From Rickettsiales bacterium UBA2645 (GTDB taxonomy: Bacteria > Pseudomonadota > Alphaproteobacteria > Rickettsiales > UBA1997), in NCBI GenBank assembly GCA_002359655.1, contig DENL01000031.1, positions 15,651 to 79,650 of the forward strand: 64,000 nucleotides of DNA, in the 5' to 3' direction. Positions 13,549 through 50,785 of the stretch are shown here, one piece after another (position 1 is the first letter of the stretch; each line of letters opens with the position of its first letter). A model generated the notes under the pieces. The model did no database searches and was not told the DNA's origin. It saw only the letters and a program-made list of their open reading frames with translations. The position numbers were made by a program, and so were the translations under genes.

Positions 13549-13720
13549 AAAAAACTCGGATCGATCATCCTCCCCTTGAGGGAGGATCGAGGAGCAAAGC
13601 GACTCGAGGAGGGGTCAAAAAACTTTTAGAAAAATTCTTTTAACTTTTTGACCCCTCACCGACTCACCCAAGGGTTCGTCGACTCTCCCTCAAGGGGAGA
13701 GTGATTAGAACGAGTTTTTA
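13549..13720. repeat. Nested-palindrome repeat element (RPE/MITE-like), copy 1
   Basis: It is a GC-rich island in an AT-rich spacer. Terminal inverted repeats are aaaactcg...cgagtttt. Local hairpins are atcctccc/gggaggat and ctctccc/gggagag, with a long-range stem gaggggtcaaaaa/tttttgacccctc. It matches 47947-48117 in reverse complement. Confidence 0.75.
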
Positions 13721-41870: not shown

Positions 41871-42799
41871 TTTTTCAAAACCTCAATTGTATATAAAGCT
41901 TCGGGAGCAGCGAAAAGACCAAAAATCATTTTCAAACAAACTAGAAAAATCAACAAAGCTAAAAAAGAACGCATGCTATCGGCGTCAACTTTATATCCAG
42001 CGCGAGTTCCGATTTGCGCTCCAATTGAAGAGCTGATAATCATCAAAAATGCCAAAACAATATCGACGGAATTGTTAGTAATTGCCTGCAAAAATGTGGC
42101 GTTGCTAGCGATAAAAATAATTTGAAATAAAGAAGTTCCAACCACAACAGATGATGGCATGCGTAAAATATAAATCATCGCCGGAATCATCATAAAACCA
42201 CCACCAATTCCCATCAAAGATACTAAAATGCCAATGCCAATGCTAAGCACAATTGGCACGATAACGCTAATGGTAATTTCAGATTTAGGAAAATGTATTT
42301 GCCACGGCAAGCCATCAATCCAAGATAAAAAGCGCTCAAAACGATCAGAATCTTTTTTCTCCCAAACGATGTTATATTTTTTAGTCGAGATGGTTTTGAT
42401 ACTGTCAATCAGCATCACGATACTGATTGATCCTAAAAAAATCACATAAACCAAAGAAATTACCAAATCAATTTGGCCAGCTTTTTGCAAAACTCTAAAA
42501 AGCGAAACACCAAGGCTGGAGCCAATAAAACCACCAATTACCAAAAACAATCCCATCCTAATATCAACCGTGTGCTTTCGTAAATGTACCATCAATCCTG
42601 AAACTGAAGAAGCGATAATTTGATTAGCCGAAGTTGATACTGCAATTGCTGGCGGAATGCCAATAAACATCAAAAATGGAGTAGCTAAAAAGCCGCCACC
42701 AATACCAAACATACCAGCGAGAAAGCCAGTTGCCAAACCCAGCAGTAAAATTAGTAAAATATTAACCGGAATTTCAGCGATCGGAAGGTAGATTTGCAT
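41867..42799 (-). CDS. TauE/SafE-family anion exporter
   Basis: An ATG at 42799 gives MQIYLPIAEIP. GMFGIGGGF and the repeat MGIGGGFMMIP are present. The longer track ORF overlaps ygfZ and is rejected. Confidence 0.7.
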   Translation of the reverse strand: MQIYLPIAEIPVNILLILLLGLATGFLAGMFGIGGGFLATPFLMFIGIPPAIAVSTSANQIIASSVSGLMVHLRKHTVDIRMGLFLVIGGFIGSSLGVSLFRVLQKAGQIDLVISLVYVIFLGSISIVMLIDSIKTISTKKYNIVWEKKDSDRFERFLSWIDGLPWQIHFPKSEITISVIVPIVLSIGIGILVSLMGIGGGFMMIPAMIYILRMPSSVVVGTSLFQIIFIASNATFLQAITNNSVDIVLAFLMIISSSIGAQIGTRAGYKVDADSMRSFLALLIFLVCLKMIFGLFAAPEALYTIEVLKK

Positions 42800-43599
42800 T
42801 AGCTGACAACGAAAATTTTTTGCCCAGAAAATTGTAAATTTTCTTTGATGTTGGAAAACTCTTGATCCTGTGCAAGCTTGATTAGAGCAAGGGCATGAAG
42901 TTCTGATTGAAAAAAAACTGACGATAGAATTATGCCAACAGATTTTCCTTCGCAAGTTATTTCGGCGTTTTTCTCGATGGCTTTGATTTGATCAATTTTT
43001 ACATGAAAAATTTTTTTGCGAATCTGTCCAAGATAATGTGTACGAGCCGTTAACTCTTGCCCAACATAACAACCTTTCTGATAGTCAATTGCATTTAAAT
43101 CGTCAAAACCAAACTCGAGAATAAATGATTTATCGTAAGTTAGATCAGCTTCGCTTTCTGGAATTTTAAGAGAAATGCGTTTAAAATCGTAAAGTATTTT
43201 TTCTACGGTGAAATCTTTTTGATCTTTGGTTAAGTAGGTTCTATAGCCCAAATTAGAATTACGCGGATCAATAAATTTTCCAGATTTTTCAAAAAAAAAT
43301 ACTTGCAACTCATCATTTTTTTTGATCACAACTTTTGAGCGCAATTTATAAAAATTCAATTTTTGTATAATCTCATCACGTCTTGCTGCAAAGCAATCAA
43401 GCATCAATTTTTCACCATTTTCAAAAATAAAAAAATCATAAAGAAAGCGACCTTGAGCGCCAAGCATGGCAGCGTAAATCAAATTTTCTTGCGAAGCTTT
43501 ATTAACATCGTTGCTTATCAAGCCTTGTAAAAAAGATTTACGGTCAATTCCTTCAAGCTCAATTATAGAACGGTCTGAGAGCAAAATTAAATTATTCAT
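42799..43599 (-). CDS. ygfZ: Folate-binding Fe-S cluster repair / tRNA-modification protein YgfZ family
   Basis: The motif KGCYVGQELTARTHYLG is present. A GcvT-like N-terminus FLQGLISNDV is also present. Confidence 0.7.
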   Translation of the reverse strand: MNNLILLSDRSIIELEGIDRKSFLQGLISNDVNKASQENLIYAAMLGAQGRFLYDFFIFENGEKLMLDCFAARRDEIIQKLNFYKLRSKVVIKKNDELQVFFFEKSGKFIDPRNSNLGYRTYLTKDQKDFTVEKILYDFKRISLKIPESEADLTYDKSFILEFGFDDLNAIDYQKGCYVGQELTARTHYLGQIRKKIFHVKIDQIKAIEKNAEITCEGKSVGIILSSVFFQSELHALALIKLAQDQEFSNIKENLQFSGQKIFVVS

Positions 43600-44623
43600 T
43601 ATTAAGCATTAGTTGTAGATTTTTTTCTAACTTTTCTAAATCAACCACCAGACTTGCTTGGTGAAAATCTTTTACTCTACTATTTTCTCCAATTGCACAT
43701 TCTTGATAAAAATATTTGATACCAAGCATGTCGGCAAGTTTGTAATAGTCAGTTACCGGCTTTTCTTCATGAGGCTTGGTTGCCATTTCTAACATTTTTG
43801 TACCTTCACTCATAAATAGAATATTGGTAAGACCAGCTCCGTGCGAGCTAACTAAATATTTTATTTTTGAACAAATTGCGATTTGATCTTCGTAAGAAAA
43901 CTGATCAATAATAATTTTTTTAAAGCCATATTTTTCAAGTAACGCAACCATTTCATTTTCATTTTCAACAAAGCGCAAGACTTGACCAGCTCGTGAAATA
44001 TAAATTTTATCACCAAATCCAAAATCAGTTTTAATATTTGTAGTCAGAGCTTGGCGTAGATTATTAAAAGCAATCGGATGTTGTTGATAAGTTTCTGCAT
44101 AAGCCAATTCTTTGACTTTAATATTTGATTTACGGCGCAAAAAAACGATTTGGTTTTTTTTAACACCAAGCTTTTCAAGCGATGGTAAAGCAAATTTATA
44201 ACGCGCATATTTTTTTGGTAAAAACAGCAACGAGTTTTCTAATAAATTTTGCTGTTTAAGCGCTAAAAGTTTTACCAAAGCAAATATGTGCCAATGATAA
44301 TAGTTGCTGGTCCATTCGTCGGTAATTAATAAAAATCTTTTTTTGCTAAAATTCAGTTTAGGAAAGATGAATTTCAAAAAAAATTTATAACCTTTGCGAT
44401 AATTATTGTAATTGACTTCACTGATACAGCTATCACGAAAAATTTCAAAATATTTAAAAACCACTGAATTAGTCGCGATGCGGACTTTCGACAAAAATTT
44501 TATTTTTGGCTGCCAACAAGTTTCAGACGAAACATTTTTAAAAATATCGAACTCTGGATTTTTTTCATCAAAGTTAACTGGCTTGCGATATTGGTAATTG
44601 ATTGTTTGAAAGAGTTTTTGCAT
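43592..44623 (-). CDS. GT61/DUF563-like glycosyltransferase
   Basis: SSHGAGLTNILFMSEGTKMLEM resembles the DUF563 core. It is divergent from the GT4 gene 42 nt away. Confidence 0.55.
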   Translation of the reverse strand: MQKLFQTINYQYRKPVNFDEKNPEFDIFKNVSSETCWQPKIKFLSKVRIATNSVVFKYFEIFRDSCISEVNYNNYRKGYKFFLKFIFPKLNFSKKRFLLITDEWTSNYYHWHIFALVKLLALKQQNLLENSLLFLPKKYARYKFALPSLEKLGVKKNQIVFLRRKSNIKVKELAYAETYQQHPIAFNNLRQALTTNIKTDFGFGDKIYISRAGQVLRFVENENEMVALLEKYGFKKIIIDQFSYEDQIAICSKIKYLVSSHGAGLTNILFMSEGTKMLEMATKPHEEKPVTDYYKLADMLGIKYFYQECAIGENSRVKDFHQASLVVDLEKLEKNLQLMLNNE

Positions 44624-44665: not shown

Positions 44666-45721
44666 ATGAAAATTATAAACGCAATTCACGGGCAATCTAT
44701 TGGCGGAGTTGATCAGGTTTTTCGCGACTACAATGAAGTTTTAATCAAACAAGGTCACGATTTATCGCTACTTATTTCTAATAATGGCAATGATAAATAT
44801 CGAAGTGAAGGAGTGAGAAAAATTTTCAAACTAAAAAATAAGGCGCAGATTTTAGATTTTTCTAAGCTGTTACTAATTCTTATTTTTTTCAGACCTGATT
44901 TGATAATTTGTCATTCTAACCGCTTGATGCGTTGGTCTAAGGTGCTGAAATTTTTTAGTAAAATAAAAATAATCAAAACCAAAACCGTTGCCATTAATCA
45001 TGGTATCACTTTTCAGAAATCTTTATTTTGCGATTACATCATCAGCATTAACGATGAAATAACCAAAATGGTCATCGATTCCGGATTTAGCTCTGACAAA
45101 GCTTTTACTTTGAAAAACGCCATAAAAATTAATCAGCAATTTCAAGAAAAAACTCTAAAAAATCCTCCGATAATAGGAATTTACGGCCGCATCGAGTGGC
45201 GCAAAGGTTATGATATTTTGATCAAGGCTTGCGGATTGATGAAATCTCGGGGTTATGATTTTATTTTAAAAATTGGTGGTTTTGAAATTGTCGGCGACGA
45301 TTGGAGTTGGTCTAATATTGATAAATGGGCTAAAGAGGCAGATATCGAAGATAAATGCCAAAAAGTTGGCGTAGTCACAGATAAGAAAAATTTCTTTTCT
45401 GATGTTGATATTTTTTGCGTTCCATCGCGCGAAGAACCTTTTGGTATCGTTATTTTAGAGTCTTTTCTTCACTCAACTCTACTGATTTCTTCTACAACAG
45501 TTGGAGGAAAGTTACTAGTTGAAGATGGCAAAAACGGCATTCTTTTTGAAAATGAAAATGCCAATGATTTAGCAGAAAAAATAATTACAGCTTTAAATAA
45601 TCCTAACTCTTACAAAGAAATAACACGAAACGCCTTTTTACGACTTGAAAAAGAATTCAGCTTTGATTGTTTGAGCGATAAGATGTCAAAAATTTTACAA
45701 CAAATTAGCAAAAATGCCTAA
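44666..45721 (+). CDS. Glycosyltransferase family 4 (GT-B, GT1 fold)
   Basis: An ATG at 44666 starts the product. The EX7E-like region VPSREEPFGIVILES and GKNGILFE are present. Confidence 0.7.
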   Translation: MKIINAIHGQSIGGVDQVFRDYNEVLIKQGHDLSLLISNNGNDKYRSEGVRKIFKLKNKAQILDFSKLLLILIFFRPDLIICHSNRLMRWSKVLKFFSKIKIIKTKTVAINHGITFQKSLFCDYIISINDEITKMVIDSGFSSDKAFTLKNAIKINQQFQEKTLKNPPIIGIYGRIEWRKGYDILIKACGLMKSRGYDFILKIGGFEIVGDDWSWSNIDKWAKEADIEDKCQKVGVVTDKKNFFSDVDIFCVPSREEPFGIVILESFLHSTLLISSTTVGGKLLVEDGKNGILFENENANDLAEKIITALNNPNSYKEITRNAFLRLEKEFSFDCLSDKMSKILQQISKNA

Positions 45722-46070
45722 GCAAAAACCTAGAATAAATTTTAATAAATTCTTTTTGATCTCAGCTTTAGCAATGTCTTTGACTTCTTGTTCTTTGTTT
45801 ATCGAGTCAATGCCAAAAAGCTGGAATCACGGTTTTAAACCGCGACCGCTAACAGGAACTCGTGGCTTTCCTTCAGCTGATACAGAATATGGCAAAGGTT
45901 TTAAAGATGGCTGCAACACTTCTTGGGATGCAGTTTCAAAAGGTTTACTTGCCGACCTAAACGATCGCAGATACGATTTTAGAAGAATGCAAAAAAGTCC
46001 TGACTACAACACTGGCTGGTGGGATGGCTATGAACAATGCACCTATATTCTGGACCACGATGTTGTATAA
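45714..46070 (+). CDS. Small Cys-pair lipoprotein, paralog 1 of 5
   Basis: It has signal peptide/lipobox LTSC and the motifs EYGKGFKDGC and DYNTGWWDGYEQC. It overlaps the GT4 stop by 8 nt. Confidence 0.65.
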   Translation: MPKQKPRINFNKFFLISALAMSLTSCSLFIESMPKSWNHGFKPRPLTGTRGFPSADTEYGKGFKDGCNTSWDAVSKGLLADLNDRRYDFRRMQKSPDYNTGWWDGYEQCTYILDHDVV

Positions 46071-46413
46071 TATTTCAATCCTAATTTTGACTTTTTTAGC
46101 TTTCGCTTTAAGCGCTTGCGTTATGCCAAATCACTCTGGCTTTTATAATCCAGTTTCTTTGAGTATGGAAGTTCCGGACGGCCCGCCAGAATATAAAGCG
46201 GGTTGGCATGCAGGATGCAAAACTGGATCAGCGCTCAAATCTTTTGCCAATAATGCAGTTTTTCAAAAAAATGGCGGACCTGATTTTGGTAGTGGTGTTT
46301 ATGCTCATGATCCAGTTTATCAAACAGGCTGGGGTCAAGGCTGGTTTGCTTGCTCAATTTATATTGGTAACTTTGTTGCAAACCATTCAATGAGATTTTC
46401 TCCACTAGATTAA
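46060..46413 (+). CDS. Small Cys-pair lipoprotein, paralog 2 of 5
   Basis: An ATG at 46060 gives MLYNISILILTFLAFALSAC. The motifs EYKAGWHAGC and VYQTGWGQGWFAC are present. The start is uncertain (track start 46024). Confidence 0.6.
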   Translation: MLYNISILILTFLAFALSACVMPNHSGFYNPVSLSMEVPDGPPEYKAGWHAGCKTGSALKSFANNAVFQKNGGPDFGSGVYAHDPVYQTGWGQGWFACSIYIGNFVANHSMRFSPLD

Positions 46414-46416
46414 AAT

Positions 46417-46773
46417 ATGAAGATCATTTTTTCGCTTTTTCTATTTTTAATATTTCTAATTACAGTTTCTTGCAAAAGCTATATGGCGGAAATTCTTCCT
46501 GAAAGACCAACTCACAAAATGGATAGTTCCCTTGTCAATGCTTCACCGGAATTTCAACAAGGTTGGAATGATGGTTGTGAGACTGGAATGGCTTCAGGCT
46601 CTAACACTTTTTATAAAATGTTTTATCGCAACAATAAGGTTGATGGCTATAAAATGGCTGGTTCACCTGAATATAAAGTTGCTTGGGGCAATGCATATTG
46701 GTACTGTTATCGTCACGATTATGTAAAACAAAAAAGTCCGATGTTTAAATCAATGTTTAGCGGTTTTCAATAA
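46417..46773 (+). CDS. Small Cys-pair lipoprotein, paralog 3 of 5
   Basis: The signal peptide ends in TVSC. The motifs EFQQGWNDGC and EYKVAWGNAYWYC are present. Confidence 0.65.
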   Translation: MKIIFSLFLFLIFLITVSCKSYMAEILPERPTHKMDSSLVNASPEFQQGWNDGCETGMASGSNTFYKMFYRNNKVDGYKMAGSPEYKVAWGNAYWYCYRHDYVKQKSPMFKSMFSGFQ

Positions 46774-46789
46774 ACCAAATTTTGTCCAA

Positions 46790-47386
46790 ATGAATATTTT
46801 AAAAAAAATTTTATTAATATTTCTACTTTGCCAAGTAATGACTGGCTGTAAATGGTTTAGCTCAGCTGGCACAACTTACTATGCTTGGACAAATTTTAAA
46901 GTTCCCGAAGGTACTCCAGTTTTTCAACAAGGCTTTAAAGACGGATGTTCAACAGTTTTATATGCTCGTGGTAACGACTTTTATCATACTCGCTACAAAT
47001 ACAAATATGACCCAACTTTAATTGGCAACACTGAATATCGCTTTGGCCATCAGCGAGGATATACTTGGTGCTTTCAAACCGTATTATCCGCTGTATCTGG
47101 TCCAAACGGCGCTCCAGATAAATTTCTATTTGTTTATGGCAATGAATCTTGGGGATTTGATGCCAGCCCAGGAGACATTAACAACTCTGGTCTTTTTGGT
47201 GGACAGGGCGGAGATAGCGCCTTCAATAGCTCTCTAACAACTCCGGGATCTGGTGTAAATGCCATGTTTGATGTATTTCAAAAAGGTACCGATTCTACTG
47301 GTGTTGGCGGTGTTGGTGGTACCGTATTTGGTACAAATCCACTTTGGTCTGGTGGCTCAAGCGGACAATTTTTAGGTTGGTATTAA
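46790..47386 (+). CDS. Cys-pair lipoprotein, paralog 4 of 5, with Gly/Ser-rich C-terminal extension
   Basis: The signal peptide ends in MTGC. The motifs VFQQGFKDGC and EYRFGHQRGYTWC are present. The Gly-rich tail ends in GQFLGWY. Confidence 0.65.
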   Translation: MNILKKILLIFLLCQVMTGCKWFSSAGTTYYAWTNFKVPEGTPVFQQGFKDGCSTVLYARGNDFYHTRYKYKYDPTLIGNTEYRFGHQRGYTWCFQTVLSAVSGPNGAPDKFLFVYGNESWGFDASPGDINNSGLFGGQGGDSAFNSSLTTPGSGVNAMFDVFQKGTDSTGVGGVGGTVFGTNPLWSGGSSGQFLGWY

Positions 47387-47389
47387 AAT

Positions 47390-47911
47390 ATGTATAAAAA
47401 AATTCTGATAATTTTTCTGATTTGTTTTATCTCAAATTGCTCAACGCCAAACTGGTATAAACCAATGGGATATGCCTTGTTTAGCCAGATGCCAAAAGGT
47501 GGAACTCCGGGTTTTAGACTGGGCTGGATTCACGGCTGCGAATCTGGTCTTGGTAGTCAATTCGCTGGAGCTTTTTACATGACTTTTTACACTTGGAGAC
47601 GCGATGTCGACATTGCTTCAGTTGATCCAAATATTTCAAAAATCAGAGCGCGCTATAAAAAAGAATTGCGCGCGGTTAATTGGGACAACCCAACCGAAGT
47701 CAGCAAAAACTTAAGCGACTATAATACAATATTTTGGGGCGCTCACGCCTTTTGTCGTCACTCTGCACTTGGTATTTTACAAACTGCTGATATGGAGCCC
47801 TCTCTTCCTGGTAGTGAGCGTTACAACATGATGGCTCATAGCGTTGGTAATGTTTTTAAAATTACTGGAAAAGGTGATACTCGCTGGGGCGCAAGAGGTA
47901 GTATGTGGTGA
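47390..47911 (+). CDS. Cys-pair lipoprotein, paralog 5 of 5, with insertion and C-terminal extension
   Basis: The signal peptide ends in ISNC. The motifs GFRLGWIHGC and DYNTIFWGAHAFC are present. Confidence 0.6.
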   Translation: MYKKILIIFLICFISNCSTPNWYKPMGYALFSQMPKGGTPGFRLGWIHGCESGLGSQFAGAFYMTFYTWRRDVDIASVDPNISKIRARYKKELRAVNWDNPTEVSKNLSDYNTIFWGAHAFCRHSALGILQTADMEPSLPGSERYNMMAHSVGNVFKITGKGDTRWGARGSMW

Positions 47912-47936
47912 GAAAACAGCCTAAACGGCTGTTTTC
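47912..47936 (+). terminator. Terminator-like hairpin immediately after the lipoprotein array
   Basis: A perfect 10-bp stem gaaaacagcc/ggctgttttc has loop taaac and starts 1 nt after the stop codon. There is no separate T-run beyond the stem. Confidence 0.4.
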
Positions 47937-47946
47937 GGCATGTTGT

Positions 47947-48117
47947 CTCTAACTCGAACCAATTACTCTCACCTTGAGGGAGAGTCGAATTTCCTTAAAG
48001 GAAATTCGGTGAGGGGTCGCGGAGTTAAGAACTTTATTAACTAGTTGAACCCCTCCTCGAATCGCTTCGCTCTTCGATCCTCCCTCAAGGGGAGGATTAT
48101 TCGGATCGAGTTTTTTT
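47947..48117. repeat. Nested-palindrome repeat element (RPE/MITE-like), copy 2, inverted relative to copy 1
   Basis: Its reverse complement aligns module by module with 13549-13720. Shared modules are aaaaactcg, atcctccccttgagggaggatcga, ttcgaggaggggt, gacccctcaccga, gactctccctcaagg.gagagt and cgagtt. The central core differs. Confidence 0.75.
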
Positions 48118-48206: not shown

Positions 48207-50180
48207 ATGCTTCTCAAACTCACGGTTTTTTTGCCGCTTTTTGGTTTTCTATTTTCTGGATTTCTTTCACGAATTTTAGCCAAAACTCCTCTGCAAAAAT
48301 TTAGCGACAAATTCGCCCAAATTTTTTCTAGCTCACTCTTGATAGCATCAGCAATCTGCGCTATTATTATCTTTATCGACATTACTAACAACAAAACCAA
48401 TCAGATTATCCCCATCATAAATTGGATTTCATCGGGTAATTTCTCAGTTAATTGGGCGCTTAAACTTGATTCTCTAACTGCCATAATGCTGGTTGTAGTC
48501 ACTGTGGTTTCTAGCCTAGTTCATGTTTATTCCACTGGTTATATGCACGAAGATAAGTCGATCGCACGCTTCATGTCTTATCTTTCGCTCTTTACATTTT
48601 TCATGTTGATTTTGGTTACTGCTGACAACTTCTTACAACTTTTTGTTGGCTGGGAAGGCGTTGGTGTTGCTTCTTATTTGCTAATCGGATTCTGGTTTAA
48701 AAAACAATCAGCTAACGCTGCCGCAATCAAAGCTTTTGTTGCCAATCGTGTTGGCGATTTTGGTTTGATTATCGCTATCGCTTTGATTTACGTAACTTTT
48801 GGCACTGTCGAATTCGCTCCGGTTTTTGCTACTGTTTGTCATTATGTTGGAGATAGCTTTACATTTTTAGGAACCGAATTTCGTACCATCGACACCATTT
48901 GCATTTTGCTTTTCATCGGCGCTATGGGAAAGTCCGCGCAAATAGGACTTCATGTTTGGCTTGCTGACGCGATGGAAGGTCCAACTCCTGTTTCGGCTTT
49001 AATTCATGCTGCAACGATGGTTACAGCTGGTGTATTTTTGGTTGCACGCTGCTCACCAATTTTTGAATTTTCGCCTTTCGCTTTAGGTATTGTAACTTTG
49101 GTTGGCGCTACAACCGCTTTATTTGCCGCTACAATCGCATTAACACAAAACGATATTAAAAAAATCATCGCTTACTCAACTTGTTCACAACTTGGCTATA
49201 TGTTTTTTGCTTGTGGAGTTTCTGCTTATTCAGCAGCAATTTTCCATTTAGCAACTCACGCGTTTTTTAAAGCGTTATTATTTCTTGGCGCTGGCAGCGT
49301 AATTCACGCCATGCATCACGAACAAAACATTCAAAAAATGGGTGGCATTTGGAAAAAAATTCCAATCACTTACGCGATGATATGGATTGGTTCTCTGGCT
49401 CTTGCTGGCTTTCCGCCATTTGCTGGGTTTTATTCAAAAGATGTGATTTTAGAGGCTGCTTTTATGTCGCACTCACCTTATGGCAAGATAGCTTATGGCA
49501 TGGGAATTACTGCAGCCTTTTTAACTGCATTCTACTCTTGGCGTTTATTATTTTTAACCTTCCACGGCAAAACCCGCGCTGATCACCACACTTTCGATCA
49601 TGCTCATGAATCTCCACTTTCAATGCTAATTCCGCTTTTTGTTTTAGCCTCAGGATCAATTGCTGCAGGATTTATTGGTGCTAATTTGCTGCACATGGTT
49701 TCTGCCGAAGGAAATTTTTTCGAAAATGTAATTTATGTTGGCGAGTCCAAATTAGAGCTGCTTGAGGAAATTCATCACGCGCCATTTTTAGTAAAAATAT
49801 CGCCAATGATTGTTGGCATCATCGCAATTGCCTTAGCTTATTTATTCTATTTGGTAAAAACCGACCTACCAAAAAAATTAGCCGACACCTTAAAGCCACT
49901 TTATAAACTCTCTTACAATAAATGGTATTTTGACGAAATTTACGAAGTGGTTTTTGTTAAATCGACTAAAAAACTTGGTGACTTTCTCTGGCGTATTGTT
50001 GATGTAAAAGGCGTTGACGGCATGCCAAATGGTATGGTCTTTTTATGCAAAAAAGCGGCATCCCAAATAAGCAAAATCCAGACTGGTTATATTTATAATT
50101 ATGCTTTGTCCATCGTACTTGGAATCATAATTTTAGCCTTCTTTTTGATCAGCTCTTTAAAACAATTTTTGTCATTTTAA
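48207..50180 (+). CDS. nuoL: NADH-quinone oxidoreductase subunit L
   Basis: FVGWEGVGVASYLLIGFW, SAQIGLHVWLADAMEGPTPVSALIHAATMV and a C-terminal lateral-helix region are present. Confidence 0.9.
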   Translation: MLLKLTVFLPLFGFLFSGFLSRILAKTPLQKFSDKFAQIFSSSLLIASAICAIIIFIDITNNKTNQIIPIINWISSGNFSVNWALKLDSLTAIMLVVVTVVSSLVHVYSTGYMHEDKSIARFMSYLSLFTFFMLILVTADNFLQLFVGWEGVGVASYLLIGFWFKKQSANAAAIKAFVANRVGDFGLIIAIALIYVTFGTVEFAPVFATVCHYVGDSFTFLGTEFRTIDTICILLFIGAMGKSAQIGLHVWLADAMEGPTPVSALIHAATMVTAGVFLVARCSPIFEFSPFALGIVTLVGATTALFAATIALTQNDIKKIIAYSTCSQLGYMFFACGVSAYSAAIFHLATHAFFKALLFLGAGSVIHAMHHEQNIQKMGGIWKKIPITYAMIWIGSLALAGFPPFAGFYSKDVILEAAFMSHSPYGKIAYGMGITAAFLTAFYSWRLLFLTFHGKTRADHHTFDHAHESPLSMLIPLFVLASGSIAAGFIGANLLHMVSAEGNFFENVIYVGESKLELLEEIHHAPFLVKISPMIVGIIAIALAYLFYLVKTDLPKKLADTLKPLYKLSYNKWYFDEIYEVVFVKSTKKLGDFLWRIVDVKGVDGMPNGMVFLCKKAASQISKIQTGYIYNYALSIVLGIIILAFFLISSLKQFLSF

Positions 50181-50785
50181 TGGATCAAAGAAAACTTCGT
50201 GATTGTCTTGGCCTGTTTTCTACTGGTATCATTATTGCCTGTGCTCGCAAGAAAAATTTTTTAATTGAAAAAATCGATGCCGAAAAAATTCTGCATAACA
50301 AAATTTTTTCTGAAAAAATCCTAAACAATAAATTGATTAGAGAAACCACTCTGGGCAAAAGCTTAATGCAGAAGTTAAAAGAAATTTTCGCCGCTGAGTT
50401 TTTCGGCATGACTATTAACTCTTTTGCTTCGGTGTCTTTAAAGCCGCCTTTGGTTTCATTTTGTATCGACAATAAATCAGCAAATCTGAAGTTTTTTCAA
50501 AAGAATAAATTTTTTTCACTCAACATTTTAAGTGAATCACAACAAGAATTGGCCAGCGGATTTGCCACTCCGAAAAACAGTAAAAAATGGGGAATTGAGG
50601 CTTATTTTCTTGGCCAAAATGGCAGTCCAATCTTTGAAAATTCAATCGCTTTTTTTGAGTGCAAAAAACATAAAATCATCAAAATTGGCGATCATCATAT
50701 TTTAATTGGCGAAGTAATTGATTTTGCCAAACTCTCTGAAGCCAAACCACTTCTATATTTTCAAGGCAAATACAATAAATTGTAA
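50180..50785 (+). CDS. Flavin reductase-like (FMN-binding split barrel) protein
   Basis: LGLFSTGIIIACA, MTINSFASVSLKPPLVSFCI and GDHHILIGEV are present. The ATG shares one nt with the nuoL TAA. Confidence 0.7.
   Translation: MDQRKLRDCLGLFSTGIIIACARKKNFLIEKIDAEKILHNKIFSEKILNNKLIRETTLGKSLMQKLKEIFAAEFFGMTINSFASVSLKPPLVSFCIDNKSANLKFFQKNKFFSLNILSESQQELASGFATPKNSKKWGIEAYFLGQNGSPIFENSIAFFECKKHKIIKIGDHHILIGEVIDFAKLSEAKPLLYFQGKYNKL

Follow-up and report, generated by a model that had tools for sequence, protein, structure and literature searches.

A five-gene array of predicted lipoproteins with a small two-cysteine helical domain, kept in order in environmental Rickettsiales

A 64,000-nt stretch of the genome of Rickettsiales bacterium UBA2645 (GenBank assembly GCA_002359655.1, contig DENL01000031.1, positions 15,651 to 79,650; the whole stretch is hereafter called the window) contains five consecutive plus-strand open reading frames (ORFs), numbered P1 to P5 in array order, which encode paralogous predicted lipoproteins. 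An earlier note on this DNA had taken them for a five-fold expanded family of undescribed envelope lipoproteins linked to adjacent glycosyltransferase genes. The description of undescribed, envelope-related paralogous lipoproteins has held up, while the local five-fold expansion and the functional tie to the glycosyltransferases have not. The host-interface role that the note also envisaged may apply. In the reading preferred here, to which a probability of about 0.55 is given, P1-P5 would constitute a self-contained, conserved envelope module independent of its neighbours, namely a hetero-oligomeric lipoprotein complex stabilised by disulfides.

The five genes are located in the window as follows.

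45714-46070, plus strand: P1, predicted lipoprotein of 118 aa; lipobox LTSC with Cys26; further cysteines Cys67 and Cys109
46060-46413, plus strand: P2, predicted lipoprotein of 117 aa; lipobox LSAC with Cys20; further cysteines Cys53 and Cys98; alternative ATG at 46024
46417-46773, plus strand: P3, predicted lipoprotein of 118 aa; lipobox TVSC with Cys19; further cysteines Cys54 and Cys97
46790-47386, plus strand: P4, predicted lipoprotein of 198 aa; lipobox MTGC with Cys20; core-domain cysteines Cys53 and Cys94
47390-47911, plus strand: P5, predicted lipoprotein of 173 aa; lipobox ISNC with Cys17; further cysteines Cys50 and Cys122

The ORF list and the translations bear out what had been read from the DNA, including the gene coordinates, the five lipoboxes, two sequence motifs (which agree letter for letter) and the spacing of the two motif cysteines, which is 42 residues in P1 (67/109) and 72 in P5 (50/122). 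The array is as tightly packed as had been described, with one direction of transcription and a hairpin at its end; the gene of a family 4 glycosyltransferase (GT4) overlaps P1 by 8 nt, P1 overlaps P2 by 11 nt, and gaps of 3, 16 and 3 nt follow. In related loci the median junctions between successive array genes are +1, -4, -4 and -40 nt, computed on ORFs extended to the most upstream start codon. P4 carries a Gly/Ser-rich tail of about 100 residues ending in GWY. P5, the most conserved member with 34 invariant columns in its ortholog alignment, is longer by an insertion of some 30 residues between its motifs, and its conserved C-terminal tail closes on a Trp that is kept in 81/81 sequences.

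Each of the five proteins begins with a hydrophobic signal peptide followed by a lipobox, the combination by which substrates of signal peptidase II are recognised. The lipobox cysteine is conserved in 59/60 sequences of the P1 ortholog group, 62/62 of P2, 65/66 of P3, 69/70 of P4 and 81/81 of P5, and the commonest lipobox in these groups is L-[ST]-S-C. Two other cysteines are invariant in every group (60-81 sequences each; 60/60 for P1 and 62/62 for P2), and essentially no further cysteine is present in the mature protein. Asp occurs at position +2 in none of the five groups. In Escherichia coli, lipoproteins without Asp at +2 are sorted to the outer membrane; by this rule, which may not transfer to the present lineage, the same destination is suggested for P1-P5.

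Pairwise BLAST among the five window proteins detects weak similarity (23-34% identity). Profiles of the ortholog groups, compared in hhalign with signal peptides removed, relate P1-P4 to one another with 91-98% probability (E 1e-6 to 1e-12) over 57-67 columns spanning both motifs, with 97.7% for P2-P3 and 97.1% for P2-P4. The divergent member P5 matches P2, P3 and P4 with 89-97% probability over motif 1. Altogether, nine of the ten pairs score 89-98%, the weak pair being P1-P5 (6.9%). The relatedness originally proposed from the motifs is therefore supported above chance by the all-against-all comparison, and on these profiles the five proteins are true paralogs. P3 is the most central sequence of the family, and in its numbering eight columns are invariant across 50 diverse members: the lipobox C19, W50, G53, C54, G57, Y86, W90 and C97. 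It had also been proposed that each protein is an internal duplication with one cysteine per half. A shared short helix motif was indeed recovered, the best half-against-half profile match reaching 91% over 15 columns, but most such comparisons remained below 50%. In the best register the repeated unit is Y-x-x-G-W-x-x-G and the first cysteine falls three residues before the second, so the two cysteines are not equivalent. The halves thus appear to share this short motif rather than a proven duplication, and even the duplication itself is weakly supported.

No family match was obtained for the five window proteins in Pfam and NCBIfam, and ten distant relatives gave none beyond signal-peptide-level noise (Pfam matches listed at E<=1 in both cases). 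Fifty further members, scanned singly against Pfam at E<=10, matched only the generic lipoprotein attachment site. A strong match to a characterised family was accordingly not found among these 65 members, in agreement with the initial impression that the family had not been recognised. The same holds for structures. In a sequence profile search of the PDB started from the P5 alignment, the top match was an unrelated amylase-binding protein, at E 0.065. AlphaFold2 models of P5 and P3 are all-alpha, with mean predicted local distance difference test (pLDDT) scores of 81 and 82.2, respectively; both motifs lie in helices, which in P3 span residues 44-61 and 84-105, and the P5 tail (153-173) is of low confidence. 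Foldseek comparison of the P5 and P3 models with the PDB returned best E values of 0.7 and 5.2 at template modelling scores below 0.3, consistent with an undescribed family.

Of 1.84 billion representative proteins searched exhaustively with a profile, only 104 reached E<=1e-3. The five-paralog profile matched 342 database proteins, all annotated as 'hypothetical' and assigned by their sources to metagenome-assembled genomes (MAGs) of Rickettsiales or Alphaproteobacteria; P4 orthologs account for 46 of the top 120 database matches. By these searches the family has few members and a narrow phylogenetic range. The proteins stand in the databases as unnamed hypotheticals, and no curated family, structure or publication devoted to them was found.

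Conservation of the array was assessed in relatives of P5, scanned with one genome per species. The scan gave 95 relatives, and the best 80 of the 95 loci (L001-L080) were examined with up to 10 kb of DNA on either side of P5. All 80 belong to uncultured Rickettsiales or alphaproteobacterial MAGs, mostly from lakes, and one of them to the MAG 'Rickettsiales bacterium UBA1997'. Many of these MAGs bear implausible labels in the databases (Rickettsia typhi, Rhizobium sp. Q54, uncultured Rhizobium, Lentimonas, Gammaproteobacteria); by synteny and by protein identities of 50-80% the carriers fall into one Rickettsiales-like clade. Cells of the family UBA1997, to which the window probably belongs, have been described as small, living in fresh water and attached to cryptophyte algae (10.1101/2023.01.31.526412). 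Between 59 and 80 orthologs were found per gene, at median identities of 46-62% (59 for P1, at a median of 62%, 61 for P2 and 69 for P4). The arrangement of the five genes in the 80 related loci is as follows.

58/80 loci: P1-P2-P3-P4-P5 in order
12/80 loci: partial arrays ending in P5, most of them apparently cut by contig ends
9/80 loci: P5 alone
1/80 loci: P1 and P5 split

An inversion in L053, L055 and L059 has moved P1 together with the block from murJ to ygfZ, and all five genes are still present there.

A second database search, seeded with the most distant matches, recovered 151 further proteins. Ten contigs of more distant, uncultured Rickettsiales lineages bear five consecutive members of about 120-150, 105, 105, 130 and 190 aa, in gene surroundings entirely unlike those of the window; L085 has three family members. 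In an all-against-all comparison of six arrays (the window and five distant ones), the best match occupied the same position in 30, 23, 26, 23 and 29 of 30 cases for positions 1-5. The window P1 had its best match at position 1 in all five distant arrays compared, and window P1 and P5 map cleanly. In the distant arrays the positions have the following hallmarks.

Position 1: C-terminus ...DWETH
Position 2: C-terminus ...HGLGNWR
Position 3: C-terminus ...QYLRRNIL
Position 4: C-terminal L-C-x-x-C-P-N-E
Position 5: long Gly-rich tail ending in aromatic residues

The earlier view of a five-fold expansion does not survive these comparisons: because the same order is found in 58/80 related loci and positional orthologs are present in arrays of distant Rickettsiales, the five-gene set is, on this comparative evidence, an old module rather than a recent local expansion. 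The position-4 motif, in full L-C-[VIL]-[LI]-C-P-N-E, is absent from window P4, where a Gly/Ser-rich tail stands instead. Position-4 proteins with the CxxC are encoded at the following places.

L081: 7616-7999
L083: 7608-7997
L087: 7599-7991
L088: 4497-4904
L089: 5610-5996
L090: 5567-5941
L092: 5582-5998

In the preferred reading, each product would be exported by the Sec system and processed by signal peptidase II, leaving a small all-alpha domain of some 70 residues as the mature part. Motif 1, [YF]-x-x-G-[WF]-x-[DH]-G-C, would lie on one helix of this domain and motif 2, Y-x-x-x-W-x-x-x-[YWH]-x-x-C, on a later one, and the two invariant cysteines most likely form a single intramolecular disulfide that pins the motif helices together in the periplasm. 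P1-P5 would be made together and would assemble as one lipid-anchored hetero-oligomer on the periplasmic face of the envelope. Joint action of the five is considered most likely because their identity and order are kept across deeply diverged Rickettsiales and their coding regions overlap or abut. The P5 tail (residues ~135-173, LPG-x-ERY...HS-x-GN-x-[WF]-K...GKGDTR-x-G...W) is strongly conserved yet has a pLDDT below 50, which suggests a docking peptide for a partner. The long tails of P5 and, in this clade, of P4, with their terminal aromatic residue, would probably fold only on such a partner. An origin of the set as an accessory of a trans-envelope machine is plausible, because the array sits behind flgB-flgC-fliE-fliQ in flagellated relatives. 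A bolder proposal, offered as speculation and with little confidence, is that a hetero-oligomeric ring or scaffold arose in free-living ancestral Rickettsiales, next to genes of the flagellar rod and export apparatus, and that the algae-attached lineages kept it under strong constraint and repurposed it for envelope integrity or attachment.

Several observations weigh against the preferred reading. At the nine loci with P5 alone, it is the sole member within up to 10 kb on either side, and P5 at least may function without P1-P4, or the other genes may be located elsewhere in those genomes. The correspondence of window P2-P4, which have diverged, to positions 2-4 of the distant arrays is ambiguous. 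Adjacency to flagellar genes is seen in about four of about ten distinct contexts outside the clade of the window, and a tblastn search with seven flagellar proteins found no match in the window and the 80 related loci, which represent one neighbourhood (+/-10 kb).

The flagellar genes bear on an alternative in which P1-P5 are a flagellar accessory complex, that is, a lineage-specific periplasmic or outer-membrane scaffold around the rod or basal body that later moved away from the flagellar genes in the clade of the window. It would be comparable to the additional disks and rings built by lineage-specific lipoproteins of other bacteria. In three synteny backgrounds (L081/L082/L089, L083/L084 and L088) a distance of 120-210 bp separates the array from flgB-flgC-fliE-fliQ, which directly precede it on the same strand. 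In L081, fliI is convergent just downstream of the array; in L087 the array precedes argJ-fliR-flhB, with fliR-flhB 1.4 kb downstream; and on a JGI contig an array between tamA-tamB and a TolC-like gene shares the contig with fliI. The arrays of L086, L090, L091 and L092, however, have unrelated, non-flagellar neighbours, flagellar neighbours are missing from the window and from all 80 loci of its clade, and flagellar families are absent from the Pfam and NCBIfam results for the 65 family members. Flagella are listed as a trait of older, free-living 'ancient stage' families of Rickettsiales (10.1101/2023.01.31.526412), and should the clade of the window be non-flagellated and yet retain all five genes under strong constraint, a strictly flagellar role would be impossible. 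The supplement of that paper does not mention flagella for UBA1997 (10.1101/2023.01.31.526412), and the database matches to FliI were without exception unnamed near-identical clusters, none of them assignable to the clade of the window. Because half of the contexts and the whole clade of the window show no linkage, a strictly flagellar function is rated low. Somewhat more doubtful still is the idea that the five are independent paralogs, each for example binding or inhibiting a different periplasmic or host molecule, with their order a relic of old tandem duplication. It would account for the loci with P5 and no others nearby, for the displacement of P1 by inversion in three loci and for C-terminal tails that differ strongly by position. 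Such tails fit distinct roles within one assembly equally well, though, and without joint function it would be difficult to see why all five, with their overlapping or abutting coding regions, were retained in order while the surroundings were fully reshuffled.

The glycosyltransferase genes that precede P1 in the window are the following.

44666-45721, plus strand: GT4-family glycosyltransferase (PF00534, E 4e-32, 111.5 bits against a cut-off of 26.4)
43592-44623, minus strand: glycosyltransferase of the GT61/DUF563 type (PF04577, E 6e-22, 78.8 bits against a cut-off of 27)

For the GT4 ORF, every NCBIfam equivalog falls short of its cut-off. The divergent position of the GT61 gene, 42 nt upstream, is as had been reported, since it starts at 44623 on the minus strand and the GT4 ATG is at 44666. 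In 41 related loci both ygfZ and P1 are visible, and in these informative loci the interval between the two genes has the following contents.

11/41 loci: no glycosyltransferase cassette, gap of 96-570 bp
4/41 loci: GT4 only
1/41 loci: GT61 only
21/41 loci: one GT61 and one GT4
4/41 loci: 2-4 GT61 copies and GT4

The loci with GT61 amplified to 2-4 tandem copies are L025, L031, L048 and L051, in which the cassette reaches 5-6 kb, a hot spot of glycosyltransferase turnover. The GT61 copy numbers seen in related loci are 0, 1, 2 and 4. The G+C content is 0.329 for GT4 and 0.306 for GT61, the lowest in the neighbourhood, against 0.345-0.42 for P1-P5.

A glycosyltransferase-coupled system, in which the five lipoproteins are substrates of GT4 and GT61, or else bind or display a glycan made by the two enzymes, as a glycosylated host-interface layer, would be in keeping with the 8-nt overlap of the GT4 stop and the P1 start, with the presence of cassette genes between ygfZ and P1 in 30/41 informative loci and with the apparent relationship of the clade to algal epibionts. 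In 11 of the 41 loci, however, neither enzyme is present, one or the other is missing in 5, GT61 is multiplied in 4, and no glycosyltransferase stands beside any of the ten distant arrays (0/10). The lower G+C of the cassette (0.31-0.33 vs 0.35-0.42) is as a surface-glycan islet that was swapped in would be expected to show. The enzymes of families GT4 and GT61 work with nucleotide sugars in the cytoplasm, which makes direct modification of exported lipoproteins unexpected. A coupled system is consequently judged improbable, and the description of the array as glycosyltransferase-linked is not sustained. Because of its absence from 11/41 loci, its varying copy number, its lower G+C and its absence beside all distant arrays, the cassette is regarded as independent of the array: on this comparative evidence it is a variable surface-glycan islet inserted in the divergent ygfZ/P1 intergenic region and not a conserved partner. 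The two genes would have been acquired separately from the module and inserted on its promoter side, and in the window islet and array may well be co-transcribed. That P1-P5 are chance ORFs or mis-annotations has the lack of any database name in its favour and nothing else; with 59-80 orthologs per ORF carrying invariant residues, 342 profile matches and high AlphaFold confidence, it can practically be dismissed.

Four kinds of known system invite comparison with the module. DUF2799 (PF10973) lipoproteins, to which the earlier note tentatively likened P1-P5, are likewise small and proteobacterial, and they presumably have short repeated motifs of the aromatic-x-x-G-x-x-D-G type. DUF2799 is not among the Pfam matches listed for the window proteins and distant members (15 proteins, E<=1) or for the 50 members scanned singly (E<=10), which goes against the proposed likeness, and on these scans P1-P5 are not to be classed with DUF2799. 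The FlgP/FlgT-type disk and ring proteins form a lineage-specific periplasmic scaffold around the flagellar motor. Like P1-P5, they are small, exported, lineage-restricted and presumably arranged around a trans-envelope machine, and they are encoded in or beside flagellar rod and export operons, as are some of the distant arrays. Unlike them, P1-P5 have an unusual five-paralog composition, share no sequence or fold similarity with these scaffold proteins and, in the clade of the window, are encoded away from flagellar genes.

Several lipoproteins also take part in one envelope assembly in the cases of BamBCDE with BamA and of LptE/LptM with LptD, and genes of a similar flavour neighbour the arrays (tamA-tamB, a tolC-like gene, surA, ctpA, lptA-lptB and murJ). 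The Bam and Lpt lipoproteins, however, are mutually unrelated and mostly beta-rich or of the TPR type, whereas P1-P5 are paralogs of one small helical domain with a predicted disulfide; in NCBIfam and Pfam they show no homology to any Bam or Lpt component. Glycine-zipper lipoproteins of the type of the Rickettsia 17-kDa antigen resemble P4 and the position-5 proteins in having Gly-rich C-terminal tails and in occurring in Rickettsiales, but P1-P5 have no Pfam glycine-zipper match and the two-cysteine helical domain is absent from glycine-zipper proteins.

Two further candidates were rejected. Pilins and pseudopilins carry a class III signal, a short basic leader ending in Gly followed by a hydrophobic helix with Glu at +5. 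The presence of five paralogs had raised the idea of a type IV pilin or pseudopilin set, but the N-termini are lipoprotein signal peptides ending in Cys, without the G/F-T-L-x-E motif. For the VirB7-type lipoproteins of type IV secretion, the sole hit to the family HMM came from one distant member; at E 0.05 and 13 bits it stays far below the cut-off of 60, and it covers the signal peptide alone.

In the clade of the window the array is flanked on one side by murJ, a universal stress protein gene, an Alph_Pro_TM/TauE pair and ygfZ, and on the other by nuoL and a flavin reductase gene. Lone P5 genes adjoin ctpA-surA or lie upstream of mgtE-lptA-lptB. Window positions 48207-50785 hold a full-length NuoL/ND5-type gene (657 aa) with the flavin reductase gene, and no other nuo genes accompany nuoL within the annotated 37.9-55.1 kb. 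P5 and nuoL are neighbours in many related loci as well, among them L006, one of the loci with P5 alone; in L064 an isolated P5 is located downstream of nuoJ-nuoK-like ORFs. On the other side, the longest TauE-family ORF (41867-42955), with a TTG start, overlaps the 3' end of the ygfZ-like ORF (42799-43599) by 157 nt, and its true start is probably further downstream.

The end of the array is marked by the following elements, and the 10-bp hairpin followed by a palindromic repeat that the earlier note placed there was confirmed.

47912-47936, plus strand: hairpin directly 3' of the P5 stop, with arms GAAAACAGCC / GGCTGTTTTC of 10 nt and a 5-nt loop
~47955-48105: nested palindromic element of ~150 bp between P5 and nuoL, with outer arms of 29 nt (79% complementary) and an inner perfect 11-nt palindrome

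The hairpin is likely to be the terminator of the array; its T-run being part of the stem, it was not listed by a consensus terminator scan. The palindrome has a clearly related second copy at ~13600-13720, about 34 kb away, and looks like a small dispersed palindromic repeat or an element resembling a miniature inverted-repeat transposable element (MITE). An Rfam scan of the window reported one tRNA only.

Environmental Rickettsiales are central to questions on the origin of intracellular life and of mitochondria, and their envelopes are essentially unstudied. The family defined here, absent from Pfam, NCBIfam and the PDB, is recognised by a clear signature, a lipobox and two invariant cysteines in a helical domain of about 70 residues. 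Lipoproteins as a kind are well known; what is unusual is that five paralogs sharing a new helical domain, with a predicted disulfide, make up a fixed module restricted to environmental Rickettsiales. The persistence of the fixed set amid reshuffled neighbours strongly hints at a multi-subunit envelope structure, and the recurrence of the array behind genes of the flagellar rod and export apparatus provides a concrete lead. If a repurposed scaffold is indeed what the module represents, it would be a new component of an envelope machine, specific to the order closest to mitochondria.

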